Assembly: GCA_041687095.1 (NCBI GenBank)
Contig: JAWLCQ010000006.1
Coordinates: 2,965-66,964 of the forward strand
DNA: 64,000 nucleotides
DNA from: Phycisphaerae bacterium
GTDB taxonomy: Bacteria > Planctomycetota > Phycisphaerae > SM23-33
Reading direction: 5' to 3'
Of this stretch, positions 26,233 through 56,132 are shown piece by piece. The notes under the pieces are model-generated. The model was not told the DNA's origin. It saw nothing but the letters and a program-made list of their open reading frames with translations, and made no database searches. Numbering within the stretch: position 1 is the stretch's first letter; every line of letters starts with the position of its first letter. Both the position numbers and the translations under genes were made by a program.

Positions 26233-26242
26233 AGAGCCAGCC

Positions 26243-26962: not shown

Positions 26963-26982
26963 CCCCTCGGGGAGAGCAGAAC

Positions 26983-27921: not shown

Positions 27922-27926
27922 CGGCC

Positions 27927-28745
27927 ATGAGAACCAATCCTCGAACGACGCGTGCGCCGCGATACGGCTTCTCGCTCGCCGAGATGGTCATCGCCCTGGC
28001 CATTCTCGGGGTGGGCCTGAGCATGCTGCTCTCCCTCTTCCCCGCCGCCATCGTCGAGACCGCCTCGTCCACCAACCAGACCATGGGCTCGCTGATCTGC
28101 CAGAACGGGCTCACCATGGCCAAGAGCGCCCTGACCTCCGACCTGCTGCTGTCGCGAAAGCCCAGTACGGACGAGCAGCCCCACAACGGGTGGATGCGGG
28201 TGCAGGAGGTCCGCGAAGCGTGGACCAACCTGGTGAACCTGGGGGACCGGCGGTATCCCGTGCAGGCGATCGCCAAGACGACCACGCGCGGCGTGGTGAT
28301 CCTGGCGCGCAAGGTCAACGCGGACGTGAACGACCACCGGTGGCAGCTCATCGCCGTCTCCTATGCGAAGAAGAACGCCACCGGGACGACGGTGCGCGGC
28401 CTGTACCCCACGGATACCCCCGAAGCCCATCCGAAATCCTACATCACCCAGGACATCGATCGGAATGAGAAGCGGTTCACCGTGACGGGCAACCGGCGGC
28501 TCTTCTTCAAGAAGGGCGGCGTGGTGATTGACTGCAGCCAGGGCAGTTCCGGGGAGTTCGCACGCATCGCCGAAATCGAGCGTCTAAGCGAGAGCGAAAA
28601 CCGCGTGACCCTGGACCGGGCCTTCAGCCGCGACGTCAGCCGGGTGATCGTGATCGAGGAGTACAAGGGCGCCGCCCTGGTCACCGACGGCGATAGCGCG
28701 GTGATGAACGTGATGAGTATCGAAACGATTCTCCCGAAGAACTGA
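27927..28745 (+). CDS. Pseudopilin with prepilin-type signal (G|FSLAE)
   Basis: 'RYGFSLAEMVIALAILGVGLSML' carries the prepilin-type signal. Confidence 0.8.
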   Translation: MRTNPRTTRAPRYGFSLAEMVIALAILGVGLSMLLSLFPAAIVETASSTNQTMGSLICQNGLTMAKSALTSDLLLSRKPSTDEQPHNGWMRVQEVREAWTNLVNLGDRRYPVQAIAKTTTRGVVILARKVNADVNDHRWQLIAVSYAKKNATGTTVRGLYPTDTPEAHPKSYITQDIDRNEKRFTVTGNRRLFFKKGGVVIDCSQGSSGEFARIAEIERLSESENRVTLDRAFSRDVSRVIVIEEYKGAALVTDGDSAVMNVMSIETILPKN

Positions 28746-28756
28746 CCGCCAGCCTC

Positions 28757-29875: not shown

Positions 29876-29894
29876 TCGGATTGCGAGGTTTGCC

Positions 29895-33783: not shown

Positions 33784-35466
33784 CTACTGCTCGAAGTGCA
33801 GCTTGTGGTACTGGTTGAAGGCGTAGTAGACGACGTTGATCCCGAGCATGTGGGCGGTGGCGACGGCGTGCTTGTTCGCGCCGCTCGACCCCTCCTTCCA
33901 CAGGTCGTTGATGTCCCCGGGATGGTAGAAGACGACCCATCGCCCGCCGTGCTTCATGCCCAGCGCCCGCGTCCCGTCGTGGTGCCAGAACGACGGAGCC
34001 CCGTTGGGGAACGTGTAGGGCTCGCGGTAGATGATGTCGTCGTTGGGGATGTCGATCCACGGCTTCCCGGGCAGGACCTGCTTCATGAGGTTGCGGAAGT
34101 GGTGCCCGAACGCCCCCCCACCGCAGTCCGCGAAAAGCATGCCGCCCTCCTCCAGCAAGTACCAGCGAAGGGTTTCGATCTCGGACTTGGTCATGTGGAT
34201 GGCCCCGCGGCCGGTGATGAAGACGAAGGGCGGGGCGGCGTTCTTCTTGAACCGCCGCAGCTTGGACACCGGGATGTGCTCGGTGTTTTTGGCGATGGGA
34301 ATGCCCGCGCGGTTGTGGGCCTCGATGAGGAAGTTGTAGTCGGCGCCCTGGCCCATGTCCTGATACCAGTCGCCCCCGCCGTACTCCAGGCGGATGAAGC
34401 GGAGCATGCCCCCGTCCTTCCCGAACGGCCAGCCGCCCTGCTTGCCCCCGCCCTTGCCCAGCTTGCCGGCCCCGATGGCGGTGACCTCGTACTCCACCCG
34501 CGTCATCTCCTCGATCTCCTCATCGATCTTGGACTCGTCGATGTCGGGGCGGTAGTAGATGATCGGGCTGTTCATGTTGAGGACGACCTTGTCGACCTTC
34601 TTGGGCTTGATGGGCTTGATGCGGACGGCCTGCGCGACGGCGGGCGTCCCGCTGCCCGGGGGCAGGTTGTACTCGTCGAGCAGGCAGCCCCACATGAGGA
34701 CGAAGGGCAGGATGACGGCGGCGACGTGGAGGAACGTCGCCCAGTAGTTGCTCGTGCGGTAGCGGGGGTCGTCCCCGTGCGTTTGCAGGTTCTTGAGCAG
34801 CCGGTCGGCGGCGGTCTCCTCGGGGGTCGCGTCGCCCGTGTAGTGCTCGCGGACGGCCCGCAGGGAGACGGCGAGCATGGTGAGGGCGGCGTAGAACATG
34901 GCGGGGACGGCGAACAGGAAGCCCGCCACCCACAGTTCGTCGCGGAAGGGTTTGTCGAAGATCGCCTTGTCGTACGCGTGCAGGGCGCGGGGCAGGCGGT
35001 CGAGGAGGAAGGCCGCCAGGACCCACACCGCCGCCGACGCCCCGGCGGCGAGGCGCATGACCACCAGCGACAGCCGCTGCCGCCACAGCGCCAGCAGCGC
35101 CCCGGCGGCACACAGGGCGGCGAGGACGGACCCGGCGGTCACGAGGCGGGCGAGGGCGGCGAGTTCCTCGACGTCCCGGAAGGGTTGGGGGCCGGTGCTG
35201 TCCTGCGCGTCCGGCAGACGGGCCATGACCGCCAGCACCTGCTGTCCGGCCACCCGCCACAGCAGCAGCACGGGCACGACGCCCGCCAGCATCAGCAGGG
35301 CCATCCTGGCCCGCAGGGGCGTGCGCTCCAGTACCCAGTGCATGCCGCGTGCGACGTACCCCAGGGCGCAGGCCGTCCCGTGGTGGATCTGGGTCAGGAC
35401 CAGGGCGAGCAGATCGGAGAGCTGCTGCGACCAATCCTCGCGTTGTGGGCGTTTCTGCAGGCGCAT
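33784..35466 (-). CDS. Polytopic membrane protein with C-terminal DUF4159-like (ThuA / class-I glutamine-amidotransferase-like fold) domain
   Basis: The N-terminal half has multiple TM helices. The C-terminal half has 'RLEYGGGDW', 'PFVFITGRGAIHMTKSEIETLRWYLLEEGGMLFADCGGG' and 'HPGDINDLWKEG', which match my recollection of the DUF4159 signature. It is the last gene of the Exb/TPR operon. Confidence 0.6.
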   Translation of the reverse strand: MRLQKRPQREDWSQQLSDLLALVLTQIHHGTACALGYVARGMHWVLERTPLRARMALLMLAGVVPVLLLWRVAGQQVLAVMARLPDAQDSTGPQPFRDVEELAALARLVTAGSVLAALCAAGALLALWRQRLSLVVMRLAAGASAAVWVLAAFLLDRLPRALHAYDKAIFDKPFRDELWVAGFLFAVPAMFYAALTMLAVSLRAVREHYTGDATPEETAADRLLKNLQTHGDDPRYRTSNYWATFLHVAAVILPFVLMWGCLLDEYNLPPGSGTPAVAQAVRIKPIKPKKVDKVVLNMNSPIIYYRPDIDESKIDEEIEEMTRVEYEVTAIGAGKLGKGGGKQGGWPFGKDGGMLRFIRLEYGGGDWYQDMGQGADYNFLIEAHNRAGIPIAKNTEHIPVSKLRRFKKNAAPPFVFITGRGAIHMTKSEIETLRWYLLEEGGMLFADCGGGAFGHHFRNLMKQVLPGKPWIDIPNDDIIYREPYTFPNGAPSFWHHDGTRALGMKHGGRWVVFYHPGDINDLWKEGSSGANKHAVATAHMLGINVVYYAFNQYHKLHFEQ

Positions 35467-35491
35467 CTACGACTTTCGCAGGGGGCGGGGG

Positions 35492-35923
35492 CTACCGCAG
35501 CATGTCATCGAGGCTGTCGAGGGACGCATCCTCCGGCCGCTCGTCGGAGGTCTCGGTGACCGCCCTCTCGATGGCCGACTGCCCGCGGACATTGGCGGCG
35601 GGCCTGGCGGGCTGGGAGGCGGCGGCGGCCTCGGCGGCGGCCTGTTTCTGCTTCATGGCCTCGCGGAGTTCGGCGGTCTTGGCGGCCTTGGCCGCGGCGG
35701 CCTTCTCCTCGCGCTCGACCTTTATGGCCTGCTTGGGATAGAGCGTACCATACTGGACGCACTGGGCGATGAAGCCGATCGACGTCGCCCCCACCAGGAC
35801 CACGTGCACGATGATCGCGATCATCAGGGCGTTGCCCATGCGCGAGTCGCTCACGTTCCGCATCAGTTCATCGGGGTGGATGGCGCCCGATTCCAGGTTC
35901 GGTTTGCTGTTCTTCTGTTCCAT
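35492..35923 (-). CDS. Small single-pass membrane protein with Ala/Lys/Glu-rich coiled coil (TolA domain-II-like / TonB-like without C-terminal domain)
   Basis: It has a TM segment 'ALMIAIIVHVVLVGATSIGFIA' followed by 'EREEKAAAAKAAKTAELREAMKQKQAAAEAAAA'. RBS GGAGG. It lies 61 bp after exbD-2. Confidence 0.55.
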   Translation of the reverse strand: MEQKNSKPNLESGAIHPDELMRNVSDSRMGNALMIAIIVHVVLVGATSIGFIAQCVQYGTLYPKQAIKVEREEKAAAAKAAKTAELREAMKQKQAAAEAAAASQPARPAANVRGQSAIERAVTETSDERPEDASLDSLDDMLR

Positions 35924-35984
35924 GGTTCGTCTGATTCCTCCGCCCCGGCGGGTCCGGGGGCGGGTTCCTGTCTGCAGGCGGGTG

Positions 35985-36395
35985 CTACTCTGATTCGCCG
36001 ATCTCTCCGACGAGGCTCATGTTGGCGTCGGTCTTGCTCAACGCCAGGAGGACCGGCCCGTAATCCTTCTGCTTCAGTTTCTTGTCGATCCGCACCATCA
36101 CCTCGCGCTCCTTGCGCCCCTCCAATAGGCCGCGAACGGTGCTCTCGACGATCCCCACGCTCATCTCGTCCCCGTCCACGAAGACTATGCCCTCCTCGTC
36201 GACCATCACGGACACGGGGGGCAGGGGGCTGGGCAGGCGGGCGATGTCGGGGGAGACGGGCGGCTCGCTGGTGACGTTCTTCTCCTTCATCGTCGAGGCG
36301 AGGATGAAGAAGATGATCAGCAGGAAGGCGATATCGCCCATCGAGGCGATGGGGACCATGATCCGCGGGCGCGTGCGTCGCCGGTCGAACTTCAC
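35985..36395 (-). CDS. exbD: Biopolymer transport protein ExbD/TolR
   Basis: 'IASMGDIAFLLIIFFILAST' is the ExbD TM segment, followed by a periplasmic domain. It overlaps the upstream exbD by 4 nt (ATGA). Confidence 0.85.
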   Translation of the reverse strand: MKFDRRRTRPRIMVPIASMGDIAFLLIIFFILASTMKEKNVTSEPPVSPDIARLPSPLPPVSVMVDEEGIVFVDGDEMSVGIVESTVRGLLEGRKEREVMVRIDKKLKQKDYGPVLLALSKTDANMSLVGEIGESE

Positions 36396-36868
36396 TGCCC
36401 ACCTCCGGACGACTCCGCCCCGCCGCCGCTCCCCCCGCCCTGCTGGTCCTCCCCGCGGTCGATCAGGGCCAGAACGCCCCCGGCGCGGGTGATGGCCATG
36501 GTGACCTCGTAGTAGTGCTGCCAGGACACCTCGGGGCTGCTGTCCACCACGACGACGCGGTCCTGCTCGGCCTTTTTGGGGAAGTCCTCCTGCATCAGCC
36601 GCTCGCGGAGGCTCATCATGGTCAGTTGCTCCGCCCTCTCGCCGTAGCGGATCTCCAGCCCCCCCGTCCCATCGGGCCGCAGGTTCACCGTCGGGTACTC
36701 GACCTGCTTGGACTGGTCGGGCGTGCCCGAGGGAATGGCGATCTCCTCCCCGGCGGGCTTGACCAGCTCGGTGGTGAGGATGAAGAAGATGATGAGGAGG
36801 AAGGCGACGTCGGCGAACGAGCCGACGTTGATCTCCGGATCCTCGCGATGTCTGCGGCGCATCCTCAT
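36392..36868 (-). CDS. exbD: Biopolymer transport protein ExbD/TolR (second paralogue) with Gly-rich C-terminal tail
   Basis: 'VGSFADVAFLLIIFFILTT' is the ExbD TM segment. The C-terminus is 'GGGSGGGAESSGGGQ'. Confidence 0.85.
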   Translation of the reverse strand: MRMRRRHREDPEINVGSFADVAFLLIIFFILTTELVKPAGEEIAIPSGTPDQSKQVEYPTVNLRPDGTGGLEIRYGERAEQLTMMSLRERLMQEDFPKKAEQDRVVVVDSSPEVSWQHYYEVTMAITRAGGVLALIDRGEDQQGGGSGGGAESSGGGQ

Positions 36869-36875
36869 GCGGGGA

Positions 36876-37523
36876 TCAGCCCTTCGCGGCGGCGTGTTCG
36901 AGGGTGATGAAGTCGATCAGCTCGGTGGAACTCTCCTCGATCGCGAGCCAGTAGCGGTCCACCTTGCGGGAGAAGATCGAGTGGGCGACGACGGCGGGGA
37001 TGGCGATGAGGAGCCCGGCGGCGGTGGTGATGAGGGCCTCGGCGATGCCCGCCCCCACCCCGCCGGCGTCCATGCCCATCTCGGCCATCACGGTGAAGGC
37101 CCCGATCATGCCCGTCACGGTCCCGGTCATCCCCAGCAGCGGGGAGACGGTGGCGATGAGCGTGAGGAGGTTCATCCGCTTTTCGAGGGCCTCGATGACG
37201 TGGGGGGCGTAATCGCTCATGGTGCGGGTGACGTTGCCCTCGATCTCCGCCACGGGGCGGTTGAGCTGCATGAGGCGGCGGAACTTGTGCAGCCCCACCA
37301 GCAGCACGGCCGCCACGGGCCCCTTGAACCGCTCGCACTCGGCGATGGCGTCGTCGACCTGGTTCTGCTCGAGCAGTTCGATGACGCGATAGCGCAGGGC
37401 GTTGGCGTCGATGGAGGCGATGTTGAAGGCTCGGACGCGGTCGATGATCACGGCCAGGGCGACGATCGAGCAGGCGATCAGCCCGACCATCACGTACCCG
37501 CCGTCAATGATGTACTGCAGCAT
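36876..37523 (-). CDS. exbB: MotA/TolQ/ExbB proton-channel protein
   Basis: It has three TM helices and 'GPVAAVLLVGLHKFR...GMTGTVTGMIGAF...IAEALITTAAGLLIAIPAV', the ExbB/TolQ signature. Confidence 0.85.
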   Translation of the reverse strand: MLQYIIDGGYVMVGLIACSIVALAVIIDRVRAFNIASIDANALRYRVIELLEQNQVDDAIAECERFKGPVAAVLLVGLHKFRRLMQLNRPVAEIEGNVTRTMSDYAPHVIEALEKRMNLLTLIATVSPLLGMTGTVTGMIGAFTVMAEMGMDAGGVGAGIAEALITTAAGLLIAIPAVVAHSIFSRKVDRYWLAIEESSTELIDFITLEHAAAKG

Positions 37524-37550
37524 ATGCTATCCTGTTCCTGAAGGTTCCCG

Positions 37551-39779
37551 TTACTCGCCGCCGCCGCTCGTCCCGAGCCTCGCGTCGATCACGTCGAGGT
37601 ACTTCTTGGCCTGGGCGGCCATCTGGGGGTACTGGCTCATGAGCTGCTCGGCCTTGTCCTTGGCCATGGCGTAGTCGCCCATGCGGTAGGCGGCCGCGAT
37701 CCACTGCAGCAGCATCTTGGGCAGGAAGGCGGCGTCCTGGTAGTCCTGGAAGACGCGCTCCATGAGTTCGACGGCCCGGGCGTAGTCCTTGGTCTCGATG
37801 TAGTACTTGGCGATCCACTCCAGCGCCTCCCCGGCGAAGGGCGAGTCGGGCCAGCTCTCGGCGCACTTGCGGTAGGCGAGCAGCGCCTTGCCCAGTTGCT
37901 GCGTCTTCTGCTGCTCCGTCTCCATCTTCGCCGCCGCCGCCTCCAGCAGCGCCCCGATATTGTACTGCGCCTCGGCCGCCAGGTCCGAATTCTGCAGCCG
38001 CGTGACCTCGGTGAAGATCCGCATGGCCTCCTCGGTCTCGCCCGCCTCCTTCTTGGCGACGGCGATCTTGAACAGGGCCTGGTCCACGAGGGACGAGTCG
38101 GGGAAGAGCTGCATGAGGGTGCGGCAGATGCCGATGGCCTCGGTGAGCTTGTCCTGCACGAGCAGCAGGTCCCACTTGACGCTGAAGGCCTCCTCGACGA
38201 CGTCGCGGTCGAGCGACGCCTTGATGTGGACGCTGATGACCTCGTCGATGCGGTCGAGGCCCTCGGCGGCCTTCTCGAAGGCCTTGCTCTTGAGCCCCAC
38301 CTCGCGGAAGATCTGCCCGAGCTTCAGGTAGATCTTGCCCTCAATGAGGTTCTTGCGGGCCTTGTCGCGGAGGCGCTCGACGACGTTCTGCTCGATCACC
38401 ACGTCCTGGATCTGCCCGATGAGGAGCTTGGCCTTGGCGGAGATCTGCCGCGGGTCGCGGCCCATCATGTGCTGCTCGTCCACGTAGGTCACGACGATGT
38501 CGTCGCCCTGCAGCGACGCCAGCATGTCGTCGCCGGTGTTGATCGCCGACTCGTCCGTCACGATCGCCGTCACGATCTTCCCGACGAACACGCCCGTGTG
38601 CGGGCCCGTCTCGACGAGGTCGATCTCCAGTTCGTCGCGGCGGCGGATCTCCTCCCTGGGCGCCTCGAGGTCCACGTTCTGCGGGGCCTGCCCGTCGGCG
38701 AACTGCCGCACCGTGTACTCCGTGTGCAGCTTCACGCGGATGCGGTCGGGCTGATCCGTCCGGTCGCGGTCGAGGTCCTTCACGCGAAGGAAGCAGTCCT
38801 TGTCGCCGTACACGCCCTTGGTGTACTCCTTGTAGGCCCCGTCGGTGAAGCCCAGGGCGGCCGTGCCGACGAGCTGGATCGTCGCCAGGATCCTCTGGTC
38901 GATCTGCCCGTCCTGCGTGTTGCGGTCGGTGAAGACGACCTCGACCTGGTCGGCCCCGACGAACTGCAGGATCCCATCGCCCTTCTTCGGGGCGCCGAGT
39001 TCCGTGCGGATCGAGCCGATGTAGTGCTCCCCGGAGCGGCCCAGGGGCTCCAGGGTGATGACCTCCTCGTCGCCCGTCGCGGCGCGGAGGGCCACCTGGA
39101 TGGCCTCGCCCTTGGCGGCGAGGACGACGAAGTCCTTGTCGAAGACCTTCACGTAGAGGCGTTGCCCGGCCTCGGCGTAGGTCATGGACTTCTGGTTGGG
39201 CGGGACGCTGGTCCCGACCATCTCCAGGGCCTCGATGGCCTTGGTCCATCGCCCGAGCTTGAAGTGGCACTGGCCGATGTAGTAGTAGGCCTCGTTGGCG
39301 TAGACGCTCCAGGGGTAGTCGTTGGTGACCTTCCGGAAGCTCATGAAGGCGTTGTCGAGGCGGTCGAGCATGAAGTAGCAGATGCCGAGCTGGTAGAGGG
39401 CCTCGGCCTGCTCTTCGGGGTCCTCGCTCTCCTCGACGTTCCGCAGGGCGCGGATGGCGAGGGGGAAGTTGTTCTCCTTGAGGTGCTGCTTGCCCAGCAC
39501 CAGGTGCGCCTTGAAGCGGGCCTTGCTCTTGGGGTACATCTGCGGGACGCTCTGCAAGAGCTTCACGCCTCGCTCCGTCTGCCCGGACTCCAGCAGCTCC
39601 AGGCCGCGGTCGAGCATGGTCTTGGCCTTGTACTCCGTGCGGGCGTCGTCGTCGCCCTCCTCGGCCGCGGGCGCCTGCCCGAACACCGCGCCCCCCGCCG
39701 GCAGCCCAAGGAGGCAGGCGACGAGGACCGCCCCCGCCGCGTACATCCGCCACATCCTGTCCATCTTGCTGTCTGTCAT
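37551..39779 (-). CDS. Secreted TPR-repeat protein (742 aa) with internal beta-sandwich-like modules shared with the giant protein
   Basis: It has a signal peptide 'MWRMYAAGAVLVACLLGLPAGGAVFG'. There are multiple TPR units at both ends. The central modules include 'ITLEPLGRSGEHYIGSI' and 'VDLVETGPHTGVFVGKIV'. Confidence 0.8.
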   Translation of the reverse strand: MTDSKMDRMWRMYAAGAVLVACLLGLPAGGAVFGQAPAAEEGDDDARTEYKAKTMLDRGLELLESGQTERGVKLLQSVPQMYPKSKARFKAHLVLGKQHLKENNFPLAIRALRNVEESEDPEEQAEALYQLGICYFMLDRLDNAFMSFRKVTNDYPWSVYANEAYYYIGQCHFKLGRWTKAIEALEMVGTSVPPNQKSMTYAEAGQRLYVKVFDKDFVVLAAKGEAIQVALRAATGDEEVITLEPLGRSGEHYIGSIRTELGAPKKGDGILQFVGADQVEVVFTDRNTQDGQIDQRILATIQLVGTAALGFTDGAYKEYTKGVYGDKDCFLRVKDLDRDRTDQPDRIRVKLHTEYTVRQFADGQAPQNVDLEAPREEIRRRDELEIDLVETGPHTGVFVGKIVTAIVTDESAINTGDDMLASLQGDDIVVTYVDEQHMMGRDPRQISAKAKLLIGQIQDVVIEQNVVERLRDKARKNLIEGKIYLKLGQIFREVGLKSKAFEKAAEGLDRIDEVISVHIKASLDRDVVEEAFSVKWDLLLVQDKLTEAIGICRTLMQLFPDSSLVDQALFKIAVAKKEAGETEEAMRIFTEVTRLQNSDLAAEAQYNIGALLEAAAAKMETEQQKTQQLGKALLAYRKCAESWPDSPFAGEALEWIAKYYIETKDYARAVELMERVFQDYQDAAFLPKMLLQWIAAAYRMGDYAMAKDKAEQLMSQYPQMAAQAKKYLDVIDARLGTSGGGE

Positions 39780-39848
39780 GGATTCACCCTTGCTCGATCC
39801 GCTGTACTGCCGAGTTCCGTGTCGCTCGGCCGCCTGTCAAACGGTGTG

Positions 39849-41450: not shown

Positions 41451-41454
41451 AGGG

Positions 41455-44400
41455 CTACTCCATTTCGCTGAAGGCCCGCTCCGTCAGGCGGCCGCGGGCG
41501 ATCTTCGCCCACTTGTCCTCCGGGTAGTCCCAGGTGAGCTTCTTGAACGACTGGTAGGCGAACTGGTAGTTGCGGGCGTTGAAGTACGACTCGCCCAGCC
41601 AGTACATCGCCTCGGGACGGATCTCGCGGTCGTCCGGATAGGTCTCGACGAGCAGCGCGAACCGCTCCGCCGCCGTCTTGAAGTCGTTCATCTTGTAGAA
41701 GCACTGCCCGCTGAGGAACAGCGCCCGCGACGCCAGCTTGTGCTGCGGGTTGCGGTCCTGGAACTTGAAGAACACCTCGCCGGCCGTGTCGTAGCGGCCG
41801 CGCTTGTAGTAGTAGTTGCCCAGCCGCACGACCGCGTTGGCCACCAGGGGGCTCTCGGGGTAGATGTACGTGAGCTTCACGTACTCCTCGCAGGCGGCGT
41901 CGTAGTTCTCGAGGGACTCGTAGCAGATGGCCTTCTGGAGCTGCGAGCGGGAGGCGTACTCGCTGGCGCCCCAGGTGGTGATGACGTTGGCGTAGCGGGC
42001 GATGGCCTCGTCGAAGTTGGCCAGTTCCTGCGCCAGGTTCGCCAGCAGGTACTCGCCCTGCGAGGCGAGGGTGGTGTTGGGGTAGTCCGCCAGGGCCTCC
42101 TCGAGGATCCGCTTGCCCTGGGCCAGTTCCTCGGACGCCAGGTCCTCCTTGCCCAGCTTGCGGTGCTCCTTGGCGACCTCGAAGAGGGCCTCGGCCATCA
42201 GGAAGCGGGTCTTGACCGCCATCTCGGGGTCGGTGAAGAGCTTGGTGAAGACGGCGACCTCGGCGTTGGCCCCGAAGAAGATCGAGCCCGTCCCCTCGAC
42301 GGTCCGCTCGGCGTCGCTGGCGAGGCTGATCCTGTCGACGTAGGTGAACGTCACCTGGTCGCCGAACCCGACGCTCAGGACGTCGTCCTTCGGGTCGAGC
42401 CGCTCCTTCTTCTCCCCGACGTACACGGGCTCGAACGAGCCGGTGAACACGCCCGAGTGCGGGAGCGTCTCGCTCAGCGTGAGCGTCAACTGATCGCCCA
42501 CCCCACTCCTGGCCACGACGGTCAGCTCGTCCCGCGCGTCGGAGACGTCGCTGTCCGGGTCCGTCACCTGCACGAAGAACTTCTCGCCCAGGTGGATCGC
42601 GTTCTTGACGATCGTGTACGACGGGTCGAGCAGTTCCAGCCGCCCGTCCGACAGCAGCCGGATCGAGCGCGTGTGCCGCTCCTTGGTGATCGCGTCCTCG
42701 ACCGTCACGTGCACCACGTCGGACCCGCACACCACGAGGGTGGCGATCTTCTTCAGCTCGTCCTCGGTCCGCGGGACCAGCCCGTCGGTGGTGACGATCA
42801 CGTCGTCGACCTCGTCCCCGGGCGAACCCATCTGCAGGCGGATGACGCCCGCGAAGGTCCCGGCGGAGAGCATGCTCTCGGCGTCGGCGCGGAAGTGCGA
42901 CTGCACCCGCACGTCGTAGCCCTTGGCCCGCGCGAGCCCGTCGGCGGTCCCGATGGAGAGCGGGACGGCGACGATGCGGGCCTCGCGGTTTTCCTCCCGG
43001 GCGGCGTCGAGTTCGGACTGGGCGACGGCGGTCGCGGCCCAGTGGGACCCGGCGTGCAGGGCGAGCGTCGGGTAGTTCACCTCGAAGAGGATCGGGGCGA
43101 TGACGCTGCAGCGGATCGGGTCCTCCGGCGTCCCGGCGGGCTGGGGGGCGGGGGCGGCGGACTTGCCCTGCGGGGAGTACTCCGGGTGCGTCGCGATCAC
43201 GACGTCCTTGAAGACCACCGGGTCCTCGGGGAGGGCGAGCTTCTGCTTGATCCGTTCGGCCTTGCGGGCGGCCTCGTCGCTCGTGTCCTTCTCCTGGGTC
43301 ACCGACGTGCGGTAGACCAGCGGGCGCGGGGTGGCCTGCCCGGCCTCCATGACCTCGTACTCGCGCTGGATCGGGACGCCCGGGGCGGTGTTTTCCTTAT
43401 CCAGGTACGCCACCTTGATGATGTCATCCTGGCGGACCTTGATCTGGTCCCCGCCCGTCTGCTCGCCCGTCCGCAGGACGGCCATGAACGTGCCCGCGTG
43501 GTTGTGCTGCCCGTGCTGCCCCGTCTCCAGGGCCTTGAGCACCAGCCGCTCGCCGCTGCCGGTCGTCACCTCGATCTCCACCACGTCGCGTTCGTCCGTG
43601 AGGTCCAGGTCGTAGTCGACCACGCGGATCATGAGCTGGTCGCCCACGCGGAACCGCTTGGCGGGGTGGAAGATCGACTGCTTGGTCCTCTCGTCGATGT
43701 CCTCGTACGCCAGCTCGATCTCGCCGTTGTAGTACGACGCCTTGAGCGTGCTCGTCAGCTCCGGGGAGCCCACGGAGACGCGCTTCTCGTCCACGTACGT
43801 GACGGTGATGGTGTCCCCGGGGGCGATCTCCAGCGAGTCGTTGGTCCGCCCGGCGGTGAAGTCCTTCTCCACGGGGACGACGGGGCGGCCGTGGCTGTCG
43901 AGGATGGCGATCTCGCTGGCCTCGACGGCGTTGCCGGTGAAGTCCTCGAACACCCACTGCACCTTGCGGAGGCGGGTGGGCTCGGCGAGGACGGCGGTGA
44001 ACCCGTCGTCCGTCATCGTGATCTTGCCCTTGGGCTTGAGGTACTCCGCGAGGCCGGGGTTGGCCGCGACGCTGAACCACTCGGCGGGCAGCGGGGCGAA
44101 CGTGCCGTCATCCTTCATGTACCCCACCACCGCCTGCGACTTGGCGTGCTGGTCGGCGACGAGGACCTCCAGCCTGTGCGCGCCCTTGGCGAGGAACACG
44201 CGGCGGGTCCAGCCGATCGTGTCCTTGGTCATGTTCCCGCCCAGGTACATCTGGCCGTCGATCAGCAGGAACGCATGCTGCCAGTTGTGCGGGCTCAGGG
44301 GCTGGACGAACTTGAACTCGACCGCCTGGTCCTCCGGGAGCCAGAACACCCCGCTCATCTGGCTGACCATCCAGCCCTGGCGGTCCTTGTAGTCGGTGGC

Positions 44401-47400
44401 GGAGCGGTCGAACGCCGCCGCCTCCTGCCACCGCGCCTTGCCGCCCCGCAGGGCGATCTGCTTGCGCATGTCGTCCACGCTGCCGGCGTTGACGTTGTAG
44501 GCGGAGGCGACCGTCAGCCCGCCCTTCTGCTGCTCGGACCGTTCGGGGAAGGCGGCCAACTCCTCGTAGTCGCCCGCCAGCATCCCCAGCAGGGCGACCG
44601 AGCGGACCTGGCCGGGGCTCGTCATCTTGATCGACACCTGCTGCATCTCGTGCGAACTCATGGTGTCGACTTCGATGCTCTTGGGCTTCTTGCCGTCCGA
44701 CAGCGAGGACCACGACTCCTTGCGGGTCGAGTTGATCAGCACCGACGGGTCCAGCCCCTCCGCCGTGTCCGACGCCGACGCCTTCGGCAGGGGGATGCCC
44801 GTGGGCACCTGCGCCCGGAACATGGCGCTGTGGGGCTCGGTCTCGGTGAGTTCAAACGACTCGATCACGTCCCCGCTCGACGTCGCGATCCGCACGGTGA
44901 CCTTGTCCTTGCCCATGCTCACGTCGCGGTCGGGGTCGAGCACCTGCACGTACACCGGGCTGCCCGGGCGGACCGTGGTGCCCGACCGCAGCACGTCGAA
45001 GCGGCGGGAGGTTTCCTGGGCCTGGGCGGCGGCCATCTTGCGCTCCAGCGCCCGCTGCTCCTGCTCCTCGCGGGAGAGGATCTCGCCCGAACTCACCGCC
45101 AGCGAACCGTCGGCCTTCACCTCCAGGTTCTTGGGGGGGTAGTTGATCTCGTTGGCCTTCTGGTACTCGGGATCGATGCGGTAGCTGATCACGTCCTCGC
45201 CCAGGATCTCCAGGTTCATGTTCCCCGGGGCGGGCTGGCCGAGCGACGTGGTGATGCTGGCGGTGAACTCGTACTTGTCCGCGGAGCTGGGCAGGAGCTT
45301 GACGTGCTCCTCATCCTTCCCGACGGACGTGCGGACGACCACCGGGACCGCCGCGCCCCCGCGGGCGATGGCGAGGTTGGTGTCGCGGAGCTTCATGGTG
45401 AGCACGCGACCCGGGACGAGGATCGTCCGCAGGCGGGCCTGGCCGATGCGGACCTCGGTGTGCTGCAGCCCGCCCGGGAGGCGGAGGTGCAGCTCGCCCT
45501 CGAGGAAGGCGGCCTCGACGTGGTCGGGGACGCGGTCGAAGACCTTCCTCACGTACTCGTACGCCTCCTTGTACTCCTCCTGGAGGAAGGACATCTTGGC
45601 GTAGAGGTAGTAGGCTTCGGCCTGGACGCGGACGTCCTCATGGTCGACGAGGCGTTCGAGGATCTCATCGGCCGCCCCGTAGTCGGCCATCGTGACGAAC
45701 AGGTCGATCATCGAGTACAGGGCCCTCTGCCCCGCCTGCGTCTTGCTGTAGCGGGGGTTGGAGCGGAGGGACTGGTACTCGAGCTTGGCGGCCTGGAAGT
45801 TCTCCATGGCGCGGTAAATATTGCCCTTGGCGAGGAGGAGGCGGGCGGCGAGTTCGTCGGGGAGGTCCTGCTCGCGGAGCAGGACGGTCATCGCCAGGTC
45901 CAGGGCCTCCTTGAGGCGCTTCTGGGCGGCGAGCTGCTCGATGCACCAGGCGACGTAGTCGGGGTCCAGCGACTCCCAGGCCTTGGGCAGCATGCCGATC
46001 TTGGCCTCGGTGAGTTCCCACGCGCGGACCTCGTTGCCGAAGCTCAACGCCTGGGCGGCCATGTGCAGGTCGTACGTCGGGTCATCGGTGCGGACGGCGA
46101 TGAGGCCGGTGATGGCGCGGGCGGCGCGGGACTTGACGACGGCCATCTGCTTGCGGGCTTTGTCGGGCACGGCGTGCATGCGGTCGAGGGCGGTGATGAA
46201 CGCGAAGGCCATCTCGGACGCCCGGGCCTGCTCCAGCGTGCTGCACAGCGGCTCGATCCGCGAGCGGAGGTTGTAGTCCCAGTCGCCGTGGTCCGGCAGG
46301 TGGCGGGCGTAGGACGGGATGAGCGTGGCGAGGGAGGCCCAGTCGGCCTGGCGGGCGGCGTCGGCGGCGGCGACCTCCAGGGCGTAGACGCGGTGATGCG
46401 GGGCCCCGGAGTACGACGCCCCCGCGGCCAGTGCCTCGGCGAGGGTGCGGCAGAGCTGCATGCCCTGCGCGTTCATGCCCTTCCAGCCCTCGTCGCCCGT
46501 GGTGGCGTACCAGCGGGCGGTGTCGAAGAGCTGCTGGTGCAGCGTCACCCCCGCGAACCCCTCCTGCGCCACCTGCTCCAGCAGCGGGGGGAGGAGTTGG
46601 AACAGCATGTGGTTGCGCTTGCCGCTCTCGTACTGGCCCGCCGCCTCGCGGGCGGGGCCGTCGTGGTAGGCGATCACGCTGCAGGACTCGATCTGCGCCC
46701 GGGCGGGCCGCTTGGACACCAGGTTGCCCAGGTAGGCCTCGTAGAACTTCTGGGCCGCCTCCCCGTGCCCGGAGCGGCGGAGCATGCCGTACACCAGCCC
46801 CTCCGACCAGACGCTGTAGTCCTTCGTGCGGTCGGCGTCGGCGAGGTAGAAGGCCCAGATCGCCTCGGCCGACTTGGGGGAGAGCTTGCGGTCGGACGCG
46901 GCGAGGTTGTAGAGGTTGCTCAGCCAACTGTACGCGCCGGCCGAGGACGAGAAGGCGAACCCCTTCGTCCCCATCAGCACGCCGATCTCGTCGGCCCACT
47001 TCTGCTGGTTGTCGCGGTCGTTGCTCGCCTGGTTGTAGAGGTAGGCCAACGCCCGCTCCCAGCCCATCCTGTCGTAGACGGGGGCGAAGACGCTCTGGGG
47101 GTCCTCCTTGGGATTGCGAGCACTGGCCAGTTCCTGCCAGACCCGCTCATCCCCGGCCGACTTGGCCGCCTGGACCTGCTGGACGTAGTGCTTGGCGAGG
47201 GTGTAGAGCAGCCCGCTGTTGCCCAGTTCGCGGACGCGGCGAGCGGTGCCCTCCCAGTCCGCCCCCAGGCCCATCCGGGGCGCCCAGGTTTCGGCCATCG
47301 CGTAGAACCCGTCGCGGTCGTTCCACATGACCCCGCGGTGACGGGAGTAGATGCGGTACAGCACCCACTCAGGGGCGTCCTTGGGCCCGTCGCCCGCGAA

Positions 47401-49290
47401 GAGCGTGCCCTTGGCCTGGGCGAGGATCTTGGCGACGTCCTCGGGGGCCTTCTTGCGGTGCTTGGCGGCGTCCCAGCTCTCGTGGGCCTCGACGCACAGG
47501 ACCAGCAGCGGGTCGGAGCCCTTGGCGGTCTTGGCGAAGGCCTGCAGGGCCTCGAAGTCCTTCGTGCCCCCGAAGTTCTTGCGGTCGCCGTTGAGTTCGT
47601 TCAGCAGATCCTTCATGGCCTTCGACAGCCCGGCCTTGGCGATGGCGTCCTTCAGGAGGCCCAGGCGAACGGGCATGTCGAGCAGCGGGGAGTACATGAA
47701 GTCGGAGCGGAGCCTGTTGCGGTCGAAGCTGTCGGGGTAGCAGGTCAGGTAGTCGCGGGCGGTGGCGAGGAGGGGTTCCCCGAGCTTCTTGGCGAGGGGA
47801 GCGAAGGCGGCCTCGGCGGCTTTGAGTTCGGCCCCGGCGCCCTGCAGGGCCTTCTGGGCCTCGGCGAGGGCGTTCTTCTCCTTGTCCCCGGCCTTATCGC
47901 TCTTGGCGGCCTTCTGGGCGGTGTCGAAGCGGGCCTGGGCGTTGTCGGCCTTGGTGCGGGCGTCGGCGACGGCCTTGTAGGCGTCCTGGGCGAGGCGGTT
48001 GTACCAGTCCATGACGGCGACGCGGTAGCTCAGGACGGTCCCGAAGTGCTGGCCCTTGCTGACGGCGGCGAGCTGCTTGTCGAGTTCCTTGCCCTCGGTG
48101 AGCTGCACCCAGTCGCGGAGGTCGTCGGTGCTCATCGCGTCGGGGTGCCTGGCGAGGAAGGCGATGCGGACGGGGGCGTCCTTGAGGTACGCCGTCTGGA
48201 TGCTGCGCAGGCGGGGCTGCAGGGTGCGGGGGCTGTCGGCGTATTTGGCCTTGAGGGCGTCGAACTTCTTCTGGATGTCCGCGTCGCTGACCAGTTCCTG
48301 GCCCTCGACGTGGAAGACCGGGGCGTTTTCGGTGATGACGGAGACGAAGCGGTAGTAGTCCCCGCGGTCTTTGGAGTCGGCGTAGAGCTTCTCGTGGGCG
48401 AGGAACTTCTTGGCCAGGTCGAGCTTGGCGGCATCGGGGGCGACGTCCTTGAGCAGCGCGAACTGCCCGACGAGGTAGTCCGGGAGCGGAGCGGCGGCGA
48501 CCTGCTGGATCTCCAGCAGCAGCGCGATCAGCTCGGGCTTGGGCAGGGTGTCGTCGGCGGCTTGGTAGACGCGCCACAGGGCCTCGTAGTCGGAGGGGCG
48601 GCCCTTGGCCATGACGCGGAGGGTGGCGACGTAGCGTTCCTCGGGGGAGCGGCCGAGGGCGGCGGTTCCGGCGGCGTCGGCGAGGCGGCGGTGCACGTGG
48701 TGGACGCGTGCGGGGGCGGGGAACGTCTCGATGAGGAGGGCGGCGACGCGGCGGGACTGGTCGCCCCCGAGCCCGTCGAGCAGGCGGTCGAGGGTGGCGG
48801 TTCCGAGGGACCAGGCGGCATCGGTGGGCCCGTAGAGGGCGATGTACTTCTGGAGGACGTCGGGATGGGCCCCCTCGCGCAGCAGGTAGTGCATGGCCTG
48901 GCGGAGTTCGGGCGTCGCCTTGGGCTGGTTCTGGACGTAGTAGAGGTACTTGCCCAGGGCGTCGCGGTACTCGGCGGCTTGGGCGGCGAGGGTGGCGGCC
49001 TGGTACACCAGGGCCAGGTCCTTCCCGCCGGCGGCATCGAGGAGGGCGTTGGCCCGCTGGTAGGCGGTGACGTAGCGCCCATCGGCGACGGCGGCCTGGA
49101 GGGAAAGCTCCAGGGCCTCCTTCGGGGGGGCCTTCTGGGTCAGCAGCTTGTCCAGGGCCGCGTCGACCTGGCCGAACTTCTTCTCCTGGATCAGTTTCTG
49201 TGCATCCTCGATGGGCCCGCCGAATACGGCATCAGACGCCCACGCACCCAGGAGCAGCATCGCCAGACAGGCAGTTGCGAACTTTCTCAT
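41455..49290 (-). CDS. Giant secreted protein (2611 aa): N-terminal alpha-helical/TPR-like region, central array of Asp-rich beta-sandwich-like modules, C-terminal TPR domain
   Basis: It has a signal peptide 'MRKFATACLAMLLLGAWASDAVFG' and RBS AAGGTGA. Repeated modules read 'VQVLDPDRDV...TETEPHSAMFRAQV', 'IRVVDYDLDLTDERDVVEIEV...LETGQH...GTFMAV' and 'VQVTDPDSDVSDARDELTVV...LSETLPHSGVFTGSF'. The C-terminal TPRs include 'YKRGRYDTAGEVFFKF...'. GC3 is high throughout. The antisense ORF 41443-49530 is spurious. Confidence 0.8.
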   Translation of the reverse strand: MRKFATACLAMLLLGAWASDAVFGGPIEDAQKLIQEKKFGQVDAALDKLLTQKAPPKEALELSLQAAVADGRYVTAYQRANALLDAAGGKDLALVYQAATLAAQAAEYRDALGKYLYYVQNQPKATPELRQAMHYLLREGAHPDVLQKYIALYGPTDAAWSLGTATLDRLLDGLGGDQSRRVAALLIETFPAPARVHHVHRRLADAAGTAALGRSPEERYVATLRVMAKGRPSDYEALWRVYQAADDTLPKPELIALLLEIQQVAAAPLPDYLVGQFALLKDVAPDAAKLDLAKKFLAHEKLYADSKDRGDYYRFVSVITENAPVFHVEGQELVSDADIQKKFDALKAKYADSPRTLQPRLRSIQTAYLKDAPVRIAFLARHPDAMSTDDLRDWVQLTEGKELDKQLAAVSKGQHFGTVLSYRVAVMDWYNRLAQDAYKAVADARTKADNAQARFDTAQKAAKSDKAGDKEKNALAEAQKALQGAGAELKAAEAAFAPLAKKLGEPLLATARDYLTCYPDSFDRNRLRSDFMYSPLLDMPVRLGLLKDAIAKAGLSKAMKDLLNELNGDRKNFGGTKDFEALQAFAKTAKGSDPLLVLCVEAHESWDAAKHRKKAPEDVAKILAQAKGTLFAGDGPKDAPEWVLYRIYSRHRGVMWNDRDGFYAMAETWAPRMGLGADWEGTARRVRELGNSGLLYTLAKHYVQQVQAAKSAGDERVWQELASARNPKEDPQSVFAPVYDRMGWERALAYLYNQASNDRDNQQKWADEIGVLMGTKGFAFSSSAGAYSWLSNLYNLAASDRKLSPKSAEAIWAFYLADADRTKDYSVWSEGLVYGMLRRSGHGEAAQKFYEAYLGNLVSKRPARAQIESCSVIAYHDGPAREAAGQYESGKRNHMLFQLLPPLLEQVAQEGFAGVTLHQQLFDTARWYATTGDEGWKGMNAQGMQLCRTLAEALAAGASYSGAPHHRVYALEVAAADAARQADWASLATLIPSYARHLPDHGDWDYNLRSRIEPLCSTLEQARASEMAFAFITALDRMHAVPDKARKQMAVVKSRAARAITGLIAVRTDDPTYDLHMAAQALSFGNEVRAWELTEAKIGMLPKAWESLDPDYVAWCIEQLAAQKRLKEALDLAMTVLLREQDLPDELAARLLLAKGNIYRAMENFQAAKLEYQSLRSNPRYSKTQAGQRALYSMIDLFVTMADYGAADEILERLVDHEDVRVQAEAYYLYAKMSFLQEEYKEAYEYVRKVFDRVPDHVEAAFLEGELHLRLPGGLQHTEVRIGQARLRTILVPGRVLTMKLRDTNLAIARGGAAVPVVVRTSVGKDEEHVKLLPSSADKYEFTASITTSLGQPAPGNMNLEILGEDVISYRIDPEYQKANEINYPPKNLEVKADGSLAVSSGEILSREEQEQRALERKMAAAQAQETSRRFDVLRSGTTVRPGSPVYVQVLDPDRDVSMGKDKVTVRIATSSGDVIESFELTETEPHSAMFRAQVPTGIPLPKASASDTAEGLDPSVLINSTRKESWSSLSDGKKPKSIEVDTMSSHEMQQVSIKMTSPGQVRSVALLGMLAGDYEELAAFPERSEQQKGGLTVASAYNVNAGSVDDMRKQIALRGGKARWQEAAAFDRSATDYKDRQGWMVSQMSGVFWLPEDQAVEFKFVQPLSPHNWQHAFLLIDGQMYLGGNMTKDTIGWTRRVFLAKGAHRLEVLVADQHAKSQAVVGYMKDDGTFAPLPAEWFSVAANPGLAEYLKPKGKITMTDDGFTAVLAEPTRLRKVQWVFEDFTGNAVEASEIAILDSHGRPVVPVEKDFTAGRTNDSLEIAPGDTITVTYVDEKRVSVGSPELTSTLKASYYNGEIELAYEDIDERTKQSIFHPAKRFRVGDQLMIRVVDYDLDLTDERDVVEIEVTTGSGERLVLKALETGQHGQHNHAGTFMAVLRTGEQTGGDQIKVRQDDIIKVAYLDKENTAPGVPIQREYEVMEAGQATPRPLVYRTSVTQEKDTSDEAARKAERIKQKLALPEDPVVFKDVVIATHPEYSPQGKSAAPAPQPAGTPEDPIRCSVIAPILFEVNYPTLALHAGSHWAATAVAQSELDAAREENREARIVAVPLSIGTADGLARAKGYDVRVQSHFRADAESMLSAGTFAGVIRLQMGSPGDEVDDVIVTTDGLVPRTEDELKKIATLVVCGSDVVHVTVEDAITKERHTRSIRLLSDGRLELLDPSYTIVKNAIHLGEKFFVQVTDPDSDVSDARDELTVVARSGVGDQLTLTLSETLPHSGVFTGSFEPVYVGEKKERLDPKDDVLSVGFGDQVTFTYVDRISLASDAERTVEGTGSIFFGANAEVAVFTKLFTDPEMAVKTRFLMAEALFEVAKEHRKLGKEDLASEELAQGKRILEEALADYPNTTLASQGEYLLANLAQELANFDEAIARYANVITTWGASEYASRSQLQKAICYESLENYDAACEEYVKLTYIYPESPLVANAVVRLGNYYYKRGRYDTAGEVFFKFQDRNPQHKLASRALFLSGQCFYKMNDFKTAAERFALLVETYPDDREIRPEAMYWLGESYFNARNYQFAYQSFKKLTWDYPEDKWAKIARGRLTERAFSEME

Positions 49291-49660
49291 GACTCGCTCA
49301 CCTTTTCTCGTTCCGGACCGTCCGTTTTACTTGGATCGGGAGAGTCTTCCAGTATGGCACAAACCCGCCCGCGTTCGTGCGGGCATTTGCCTTCCGTTGT
49401 CCTTAGGTTCAACCGCAAGCACCCGCCAGGGTTCCGAACCCAGGGAACCGCTTCTCCAAGTCCCGGGCTCCCCGGTCCCGGCCCCACAGGGCCGCACCGG
49501 ACGCAACGGGACCAACACGTCCCCCTATGAACCCCGCGGGCTGGACAAGGTTGCGTGAATTCCCGAGGCGCCTTTCCCCGCATGGGGTTTGACATCCGCA
49601 TCCCAAACGGGTACCAACCCTTCGACACACTCCGCAGATGGACCGAAAGGAACCGCAGAC

Positions 49661-56048: not shown

Positions 56049-56132
56049 CCTTAGCCTCAGGGTGCGTCTGACTGTCGAAGAAAACAACTCACGCGGGTGC
56101 ATCCCGGCGTTTACAGACGGTTTCAGAACTCA

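Follow-up and report, generated by a model that had tools for sequence, protein, structure and literature searches.

Introduction

Diderm bacteria have no known means other than stators of the ExbBD/TolQR type of supplying the periplasm and outer membrane with energy. The outputs described so far, which are TonB uptake, Tol-Pal, gliding and spore-coat deposition, have each revealed new cell biology. Bacteria of the Planctomycetes-Verrucomicrobia-Chlamydiae (PVC) group have unusual envelopes, and the mechanisms by which they take up large polymers are poorly understood. Here we analyze an operon of eight genes in a stretch of 64,000 nucleotides from a Phycisphaerae bacterium (assembly GCA_041687095.1, contig JAWLCQ010000006.1, positions 2,965 to 66,964 of the forward strand). 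This whole stretch is called the window, and coordinates are positions within it unless another locus is named. The operon encodes a giant exported protein, two exported tetratricopeptide repeat (TPR) proteins (TPR533 and TPR742), an ExbB/TolQ-family proton channel, two ExbD/TolR paralogues (ExbD1 and ExbD2), a small protein with a single transmembrane (TM) helix and a polytopic membrane protein with a DUF4159 domain. A preliminary description of the window had proposed that these genes form an uncharacterized trans-envelope apparatus driven by the proton motive force (PMF).

Two closely parallel systems are already in the literature. As defined by Luciano et al. (2011, PMC3169522), the Agl-Glt core complex consists of aglR/aglQ/aglS, three exported TPR genes (gltC/gltD/gltE) and the TonB-like gltG. 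According to the same text, the core-complex operon is also clustered in Gammaproteobacteria, Betaproteobacteria, Geobacter and Fibrobacter, and its function outside Myxococcales and Bdellovibrio is unknown. In PVC bacteria, loci encoding von Willebrand factor A (vWA) 'force transducers' have been described from Tichowtungia aerotolerans, also with unknown function (Mol Biol Evol 2025, PMC12204202); the same study failed to identify TolA and TonB in several members of the PVC group. The MUL1 locus of Akkermansia muciniphila (Amuc_0543-0548) comprises ExbB/ExbD and a periplasmic complex needed for mucin import (Davey et al. 2023, as cited in later papers); it is reported to be restricted to gut Akkermansia and to lack synteny even in aquatic Akkermansiaceae.

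The eight genes are conserved as a module

To determine how the operon is distributed, one genome per GTDB species was surveyed. Relatives were found in 220 genomes, and 80 loci were kept and compared with the eight window proteins by tblastn. Counts of upstream gene order were restricted to the 59 loci that had the full 10 kb of upstream DNA. The ExbB-ExbD-ExbD set was immediately 5′ of the DUF4159 gene in all of these loci (59/59), and the giant, TPR533, TPR742 and motor genes were colinear in 48 of them. A further 5/59 were of a variant type, with a giant-like gene right beside ExbB. These counts bear out the view of the preliminary description that the genes belong together rather than being a fortuitous juxtaposition.

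Nearly all of the 80 loci carry the label Planctomycetota, Lentisphaeria/Victivallales, Kiritimatiellia or Verrucomicrobiota, and a few are in bins with another phylum label or none. When three contigs were inspected, complete eight-gene sets in the same order were present in metagenome-assembled genomes (MAGs) of Lentisphaeria, Sumerlaeota and Verrucomicrobia. The proteins in these three MAGs are of similar length: giant, 2520-2572 aa; TPR533-like, 532-572 aa; TPR742-like, 737-755 aa; ExbB, 212-243 aa; ExbD1, 141-148 aa; ExbD2, 134 aa; small protein, 155-254 aa; and DUF4159 protein, 543-561 aa. The genes flanking the three copies are wholly different. Because the order is kept across phyla at 30-65% protein identity while the flanks are unrelated, the eight-gene module is an autonomous and anciently conserved unit. 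The DUF4159 protein has >500 full-length homologues at ~40-50% identity, whose named sources are MAGs of Verrucomicrobia, Planctomycetota, Sumerlaeota and Lentisphaeria, and its profile matched at least 278 clusters (50% identity) at E ≤ 1e-30 among 1.84 billion representatives. The closest homologue of the giant (64% identity) is from a Phycisphaerae MAG.

The preliminary description had also noted the absence of the usual partners of such motors, which we confirmed. The TonB C-terminal domain (PF03544), TonB-dependent transporters, TolB and Pal (OmpA-like) were absent from the eight proteins and the window open reading frames (ORFs) scanned, and also from the called genes of the related loci with Pfam listings (L001-L004 and L086). 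A canonical TonB or receptor gene was thus not the conserved partner elsewhere among the loci with such listings. Neither a secretin nor a beta-barrel protein was found in the operon or the window ORFs scanned, and scans of the exported TPR proteins with NCBIfam gave no match to GltC, GltD or GltE. All-against-all clustering of 899 downstream ORFs revealed no family-wide downstream partner gene, only subfamily neighbors in 4-6 loci. In the subfamily with a giant-like gene next to ExbB (L074, L077, L080, L082, L083 and L084), a conserved but unannotated membrane protein of ~390 aa is encoded ~50-100 bp after the DUF4159 gene and may be a subfamily-specific ninth component.

In several cases a single MAG held the module two or three times, as diverged copies on separate contigs (L015/L023/L061 of Victivallales, L007/L018 and L074/L077). 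Unless they are binning artefacts, such copies suggest that the module has diversified in function and is not one housekeeping system. In addition, one metagenome contig (L086, 2039-22981) carries two different TPR-ExbB-ExbD-ExbD cassettes in tandem. The first consists of TPR proteins of 1077 aa and 257 aa, the motor, and a 514-aa protein that weakly matches the squalene-hopene-cyclase C-terminal domain. The second, downstream cassette is of the window type and ends in DUF4159; the two are separated by a T2SSG pseudopilin gene of opposite orientation. Because L086 carries another cassette type beside a window-type module, PVC bacteria hold a diversified family of motor cassettes.

The motor has the conserved residues of a proton-driven stator

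Residues P128, G131, T135, T166 and T167 of ExbB are ≥95% conserved in 73 orthologues; TM2 keeps the P-x-x-G-x-x-G-T motif that ends in T135, and TM3 keeps T166/T167. ExbB orthologues within the module are 37-65% identical to the window protein. The single TM helix of each ExbD paralogue contains an aspartate that is conserved to the same degree (≥95%), Asp20 in ExbD1 (65 orthologues) and Asp21 in ExbD2 (74 orthologues). In 5:2 stators (ExbBD, TolQR and MotAB), these pore threonine and TM aspartate residues carry the protons. Judged by these residues, ExbB and the two ExbD proteins supply the components predicted for a 5:2 stator whose ExbD pair is heteromeric. Because the two ExbD genes are distinct, the plug would be heterodimeric, as in AglQ/AglS.

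Two candidate adaptor proteins accompany the motor

The three motor genes are invariably followed by genes for two membrane proteins, and in the majority of genomes three genes for Sec-exported TPR proteins precede them. The gene for the small protein lies between the ExbD2 and DUF4159 genes in ~50 loci. Features common to the family are a cytoplasmic P-[DE]-x-L-[LM] motif, the single TM helix, a Lys/Glu/Ala-rich helix and an acidic C-terminal tail. The TM helix follows the pattern S/A-x3-H-x6/7-T-S, with His40 and Ser48 invariant in a 23-sequence alignment, and resembles the S-H-L-S anchor of TonB/TolA. The acidic tail is of the form ...ERP..S..L-D...D-L-E in the window type and PPE-V-x-P-L-P-P-K-K-x-F-x-Y-G-D-D-L-S-L-D in Kiritimatiellia. 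No C-terminal globular domain, TonB/TolA C-terminal domain or Pfam family was recognized in the small protein. Its best NCBIfam match was GltJ, at a weak score (E = 0.0018; 17 bits, where the cut-off is 450). Other members of the family gave weak matches to TonB (0.0004, one member), TolA (two members) and GltG (E = 0.52, two members). The preliminary description had likened the protein to TolA; its TM helix and Ala/Lys/Glu-rich helix agree with that proposal, but the similarity is statistically weak and the TolA C-terminal domain is missing. We therefore regard the small protein as a candidate TonB/TolA/GltG-like adaptor that lacks the C-terminal domain. Variants with one to several N-terminal zinc ribbons occur at L013, L018, L020-L022, L028, L034, L045 and L061, and the zinc-ribbon variant had no match in the PDB.

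The second candidate adaptor is the DUF4159 protein. An AlphaFold2 (AF2) model built from 22 sequences (predicted local distance difference test score, pLDDT, 74.5), together with hydropathy, gave a layout of an amphipathic N-terminal helix, five TM helices, a juxtamembrane Y-x4-G-x-G motif with a Lys-rich strand, a disordered linker and an alpha/beta domain. Among 78 orthologues, P254, Y266, G271 and G273 were near-invariant, and His28 in the amphipathic helix was present in 53. Position 247 in TM5 (34726-34728) was His in 41/78 and Phe in 31/78, which suggests two subfamilies with different helix-helix contacts. The DUF4159 domain scored above the Pfam gathering threshold, and its fold, which agrees with that of a solved member, is like that of class-I glutamine amidotransferases (GATase1) without the conserved catalytic Cys. 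We also considered whether it is a vWA domain; this was rejected by the GATase1-like fold in Foldseek and an hhalign probability of 0.07%. One DUF4159 orthologue (P0117) carries an N-terminal FHA domain. Because this variant places the N-terminus in the cytoplasm and five TM helices follow, the DUF4159 domain is probably periplasmic.

The exported proteins form a putative scaffold

The giant consists of a signal peptide, ~1250 aa of helical/TPR-like repeats, ~1090 aa of beta-sandwiches and a C-terminal YbgF/BamD-like TPR module. Residues 1270-2360 were modeled with AF2 from a 16-sequence alignment (mean pLDDT 81.4) and were almost entirely beta, forming a chain of beta-sandwiches. The best Foldseek matches of this array were a Nitrosopumilus S-layer protein (8c8m, E = 1e-22), complement C5/C3 and bacterial alpha2-macroglobulins (5a42 and 4u48), so that the label of a giant beta-module protein given to it in the preliminary description agrees with both the model and the structural search. 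The array includes discoidin-like (~1505-1582) and PA14-like (~1590-1740) segments, and in orthologues of the giant Pfam recognizes PA14, F5/8 type C and MG2 domains within the beta region. Segments of the window giant align to the F5/8-like part and the second PA14-like part of orthologue P0130; the canonical PA14 domain of P0130 has been inserted there and is absent from the window giant. The N-terminal and central regions of the window giant gave no significant Pfam domain. Glycan binding by the giant is plausible in view of this domain content.

The NCBIfam YbgF model (TIGR02795, cut-off 90.1 bits) scored 104.7 bits on TPR742, 89.5 bits on the whole giant and 97.5 bits on its C-terminal half, the scores for TPR742 and the C-terminal half being sums over several stretches. 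The best stretch in the giant was 2493-2601. TPR742 also exceeded the BamD cut-off (94.8 against 81.4 bits), and TPR533 scored 56 bits with the YbgF model. The full CpoB model reached 33 bits against a cut-off of 383. Residues 249-718 of TPR742 and 2142-2552 of the giant were colinear (BLASTP, E = 5e-15). Because TPR742 aligns colinearly with its last 470 residues, the giant is an expanded paralogue of TPR742. The proposed likeness of the TPR proteins to CpoB and to GltD/GltE therefore holds at the level of architecture, as the YbgF score of TPR742 indicates and as the gene set, which mirrors the Agl-Glt core, indicates too.

The giant had initially been called secreted. The exported proteins are better described as Sec-exported and are probably located in the periplasm: orthologues of TPR533 and TPR742 have SPI-type signal peptides, and neither of these two proteins, when checked, had a conserved lipobox or sorting signal. 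The possibility that they are lipoproteins like non-proteobacterial CpoB was rejected, as a lipobox-like motif was present in only 4/53 TPR742 and 5/34 TPR533 orthologues. In TPR533 orthologues the mature N-terminus starts with a conserved W-x-W-x-L...Y motif, and in many TPR742 orthologues (e.g. L004, L011, L016, L018 and L023) it is basic, with an A-A-R-K-x-K-R-like sequence.

Gene calls and local setting of the operon

All eight genes are co-directional on the minus strand (33784-49290) and each is a call in the ORF listing from which the gene models were taken (Table 1). Families were assigned with Pfam and NCBIfam, and export signals and TM helices with a hydropathy scan. The spacing from the giant to the DUF4159 gene is 4, 69, 27 and 7 bp, a 4-nt overlap of ExbD1 and ExbD2, 61 and 25 bp. 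The gene calls, gaps, overlap and families all agree with the operon as originally described. An exact-sequence lookup that covered six of the products (the giant, TPR533, TPR742, ExbB, the small protein and the DUF4159 protein) found each as an exact called protein on one 72,414-bp NCBI contig. All three exported proteins matched Pfam TPR families. By hydropathy, the giant and TPR742 have a Sec-type N-terminal hydrophobic segment, and the TM count is one for each ExbD, one for the small protein and five for the DUF4159 protein; the signal sequence of TPR533, which ends in LHA-QT, is recognizable although it was under the threshold of the scan. A promoter scan returned no promoter-like sites, and a terminator scan found terminator-like sites no more often than in shuffled sequence.

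Table 1. Features of the eight-gene operon (positions in the window)
Feature	Position	Strand	Length and basis
Giant exported protein	41455-49290	minus	2611 aa; ORF call; Pfam TPR_6, YfiO, ANAPC3
Central beta-sandwich array of giant (residues 1270-2360)	42211-45483	minus	AF2, Foldseek
C-terminal TPR module of giant (residues 2448-2603), YbgF/CpoB- and BamD-like	41482-41949	minus	Pfam TPR_6, TPR_12, YfiO
TPR533, Sec-exported TPR protein	39849-41450	minus	Pfam TPR families
TPR742, Sec-exported TPR/beta-sandwich/TPR protein	37551-39779	minus	Pfam TPR_6 (3e-30)
ExbB/TolQ-family proton channel	36876-37523	minus	215 aa; PF01618 (2.7e-27)
ExbD1, ExbD/TolR paralogue 1	36392-36868	minus	158 aa; PF02472 (6.3e-14)
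ExbD2, ExbD/TolR paralogue 2	35985-36395	minus	136 aa; PF02472 (5.7e-13)
Small single-pass protein	35492-35923	minus	143 aa; no Pfam family
Polytopic DUF4159 membrane protein	33784-35466	minus	560 aa; PF13709 (7e-31)
DUF4159 domain (residues 356-550)	33817-34401	minus	PF13709; GATase1-like alpha/beta fold

The GC content of the window is 64-73%, and because of this richness long ORFs crowd every frame. Plus-strand ORFs run antisense to the giant (41443-49530, 2695 aa) and to TPR533/TPR742 (37896-41471, 1191 aa). Their translations are repetitive and of low complexity and gave no family matches; they are high-GC shadow ORFs rather than rival genes, and they could mislead gene callers.

An operon resembling type IV pilus and type II secretion system (T4P/T2SS) genes is convergent to the module (18501-32888, plus strand) and stops 896 bp from the DUF4159 stop codon. 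It encodes two PilB-like ATPases with MshEN domains, a PilT-like ATPase, PilC and four pseudopilins with N-terminal methylation motifs, one of which is 455 aa long with the motif at residue 151, as well as a 997-aa protein without a Pfam match. No secretin was recognized in this operon. The preliminary description had pointed out its proximity. When nine of the pilus proteins were compared with all ~80 loci by tblastn, a single PilC match in the flank of one locus (L043) was obtained, and a functional tie between the two operons was rejected.

Other genes in the window are a glycoside hydrolase family 65 (GH65) gene (50993-53224, plus strand) divergent from the giant gene, FtsK (53526-56102, minus strand), an LptF/LptG-family permease (11878-13605, minus strand) and a multi-PAS histidine kinase (14175-17006, minus strand); UvrD and MutS2 are also encoded. 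An LptF/G gene is near the Tichowtungia locus too (L087, 15992-17074), which is probably a coincidence.

Discussion

The conserved gene order, the stator residues and the accompanying protein set suggest that the operon is a self-contained, PMF-driven candidate apparatus for force transduction in the periplasm, which is widespread in PVC bacteria and also present, at least once, in a MAG of Sumerlaeota. We place the probability of this interpretation at about 70%. As far as its genes indicate, the module is a real and conserved type of ExbBD/TolQR-driven periplasmic machine with a new set of adaptors and scaffold proteins. A full-text literature search found no published description of the eight-gene module or of a function for DUF4159, a domain for which it returned the Pfam database paper alone, and the proposal of an uncharacterized, motor-coupled system is supported in this respect. 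The qualifier 'trans-envelope' fared less well, as discussed below.

We propose the following mechanism. Proton flow through a stator of ExbB5 and the ExbD1/ExbD2 pair would drive two adaptor proteins. The S-x3-H helix of the small protein would dock on ExbB in the way that the helices of TonB, TolA and GltG do, and its Lys/Glu/Ala-rich helix and acidic tail would extend into the periplasm, where the tail would be well suited to bind in the groove of a TPR domain. The DUF4159 protein would use its five-TM anchor to present a non-catalytic GATase1-like domain in the periplasm. Through the acidic tail, the DUF4159 domain or both, the adaptors would engage a soluble scaffold composed of TPR533, TPR742 and the giant. 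The ~ten macroglobulin/Ig-like domains of the giant, with their discoidin- and PA14-like inserts, could span tens of nanometers and bind glycan, which may be peptidoglycan, a surface polymer or a substrate; the giant would thereby reach peptidoglycan, the outer membrane or a polymer.

Several observations weigh against this mechanism. In six of the 59 loci (Kiritimatiellia and Lentisphaerales types), the motor, small-protein and DUF4159 genes are present with no giant or TPR gene within 10 kb; housekeeping genes (ClpX, Asd, SMC and a radical-SAM methylthiotransferase) lie 5′ of the one such locus examined. The small protein showed no significant sequence similarity to TonB, TolA or Glt proteins, the PDB-profile and NCBIfam matches being weak or of low complexity, and the window protein has Ala rather than Ser four residues ahead of His40. 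A contact between the motor and the TM5 His of the DUF4159 protein is possible in only part of the family because the residue is Phe in 31/78 orthologues. The periplasmic location of the DUF4159 domain presupposes that the protein has the five TM helices counted by hydropathy and that helix 12-48 does not span the membrane. The contacts of the tail with TPR proteins and of the DUF4159 domain with the scaffold are conjecture. Finally, because the operon encodes no outer-membrane component, a trans-envelope character is not demonstrated.

The output of such an apparatus may be envelope organization or tethering in the manner of Tol-Pal/CpoB, which is our tentative first choice. Capture and inward movement of polysaccharide or glycoprotein, as proposed for Akkermansia MUL1, is also possible. 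We consider an output of some other kind rather unlikely, and movement of a surface complex or polymer like that of Agl-Glt/Nfs more unlikely still.

Among the alternative explanations, the one that survives best is that the operon is the Tol-Pal counterpart of PVC bacteria, with TolQ-TolR-TolR′, a TolA without domain III and three CpoB-like TPR proteins, the TolB and Pal functions being encoded elsewhere or replaced. It would then coordinate processes of the outer membrane and peptidoglycan. We regard this explanation as possible, but we are inclined to doubt it. TolQ and TolR are the top NCBIfam models for ExbB and ExbD1, but the scores (116 bits against 221 and 32.4 bits against 127.3) are far under the equivalog cut-offs. 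TPR742 and the giant C-terminus reach the YbgF cut-off, and some giant homologues are named 'TolA-binding protein' in database sources; nonetheless, the TPR proteins of the operon are 533-2611 aa long, with beta-sandwich arrays and no lipobox, compared with 263 aa for CpoB. Both the TM helix and the Ala/Lys/Glu-rich helix of the small protein recall TolA, whereas TolA domain III, TolB and Pal are all absent from the operon and the window ORFs scanned. A published catalogue includes genomes of Lentisphaerae and Kiritimatiellota that have tolB-pal and no identifiable TolA, but it records no pal for Planctomycetes (PMC12204202) and the module also occurs in MAGs with that label. The two or three diverged copies in some MAGs would likewise be unusual for a housekeeping division system.

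The same copies are in keeping with energized uptake or capture of large glycans and glycoproteins, a MUL1-like function that would serve 'selfish' periplasmic polysaccharide uptake in PVC bacteria. The PA14, F5/8 type C and MG2 domains in giant orthologues and the polysaccharide-degrading habit of the host lineages point in this direction, as do the GH65 and GH31 genes that lie close to the module here and at L004. This explanation is doubtful, however. The operon encodes no outer-membrane channel, clustering of the downstream ORFs did not show a carbohydrate-active enzyme or transporter as a conserved neighbor, and the PA14 domain of P0130 that Pfam recognizes is the very insertion missing from the window giant. 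The annotated gene order of MUL1 also differs and lacks DUF4159, and the locus is reported to lack synteny even in aquatic Akkermansiaceae.

It is unlikely that the module belongs to, or derives from, the Agl-Glt/Nfs core-complex family and so is a motor for directional surface transport in gliding, movement of adhesion complexes or polymer deposition. The parts list is identical to that of the core complex of Luciano et al. (PMC3169522), the top NCBIfam match of the small protein is GltJ, although weak, and GltG was matched in two members; the zinc-ribbon variants mimic GltJ and the FHA variant mimics GltG. On the other hand, no match to any Glt or Agl model was significant, and the TonB C-terminal domain is lacking. 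To our knowledge, gliding is not known in most of the host lineages. The operon has none of the outer-membrane proteins of the GltA/B/H/K type and no AglZ or MglA partner. Luciano et al. argue that motility is not driven by the core complex on its own, and DUF4159 is not among the Agl-Glt genes listed in the text consulted (PMC3169522).

Chance neighborhood or local shuffling of genes that do not work together, to which the six motor-only loci and a locus without the full 10 kb upstream (L046) that has the giant and TPR genes downstream rather than upstream lend some color, is very improbable given the constant motor (59/59) and full colinear set (48/59) in several phyla at 30-65% identity with unrelated flanks, the tiny intergenic gaps and the 4-nt gene overlap.

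If the operon is the proposed force-transduction apparatus, it offers a conserved and self-contained candidate for energy coupling in PVC envelopes. It also gives the orphan domain DUF4159, which has had a solved structure since 2013 and no assigned role, its first consistent functional context. For genetic work, clear handles are offered by the Asp of each ExbD, the small protein's His40, the giant and the DUF4159 domain. A bolder proposal, which we consider speculative and rather improbable, is that the module is an unrecognized PVC-wide machine in which the stator pulls a periplasm-spanning filament of the giant macroglobulin and TPR proteins via a TonB-like adaptor lacking the C-terminal domain and the DUF4159 adaptor, powering the capture and import of whole polysaccharides or glycoproteins. 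If true, it would be the missing energy coupler for import in planctomycetes, Lentisphaerae and Kiritimatiellae, whose periplasm is enlarged and in which a TonB-dependent route is not evident.

Comparison with known systems

The module shares with the Ton system an ExbB/ExbD stator and a His-bearing helix in a single-pass adaptor. It differs in that neither a TonB C-terminal domain nor a transporter is encoded in the operon or the window ORFs scanned, and in that the partners are TPR/beta-sandwich proteins and DUF4159. With Tol-Pal it shares a TolQ/TolR-type stator, a TolA-like anchor helix followed by a charged helical segment, and YbgF-type TPR modules. In contrast to Tol-Pal, it has two ExbD proteins, larger non-lipoprotein TPR proteins with beta-sandwiches and the extra DUF4159 protein, and it has no TolA domain III, TolB or Pal.

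Similarity to the Tichowtungia vWA locus is seen in gene order: one or more TPR genes, a tolQ-like gene and two heterologous tolR-like genes are followed by genes for two membrane-anchored putative transducers with a His-bearing helix. The small protein has both the SHLS-type His-helix (S/A-x3-H, with H40 invariant) and the gene context of the vWA transducers. However, the C-terminal domains of the Tichowtungia transducers are vWA domains, whereas one adaptor of the module has none and the other has the GATase1-like DUF4159; the Tichowtungia ExbB is 32% identical to the window ExbB, the giant is absent there and the TPR genes are different. No homologue of the vWA transducers was found in the 80 loci by tblastn. 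Identity with the published vWA transducers was rejected by Foldseek, hhalign and tblastn, and the Tichowtungia locus is a sister system. The vWA transducers (L087, 10001-12883) have acidic tails (...MEDLLKNNDLGD and ...NNDLSDD) that can be compared with ...GDDLSLD and ...SLDDMLR of the small proteins, and their juxtamembrane F-S-G-E ... V-K-V ... K-K resembles the Y-G-x-P-K-G-S-G ... V-K-V-K-K-K that follows TM5 in the DUF4159 protein. These are possible short motifs common to the Tichowtungia transducers and the module adaptors, without statistical support.

Like the Agl-Glt core, the module combines in one operon one TolQ-like and two distinct TolR-like genes, three TPR proteins with signal peptides and a TonB-like TM adaptor. 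Moreover, lineage variants of its two adaptors carry an N-terminal FHA domain (cf. GltG) or zinc ribbon (cf. GltJ). Unlike Agl-Glt, its small adaptor has no TonB C-terminal domain, the DUF4159 protein is additional, and one of the TPR proteins is ~2600 aa long with macroglobulin/Ig-like arrays. The module is found in PVC bacteria and Sumerlaeota rather than in Proteobacteria and Fibrobacter, with no gliding-specific genes and no significant sequence match.

MUL1 differs from the module in its annotated genes, since the hypothetical mul1A/mul1B (Amuc_0544/Amuc_0543) are beside an ExbD-hypothetical-ExbB set and no DUF4159 is annotated. It resembles the module, at the level of gene annotation, in its PVC host and in having ExbB/ExbD genes beside those of a periplasmic complex for macromolecule import. 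MUL1 is the nearest analogue of the module with experimental characterization in a PVC bacterium.

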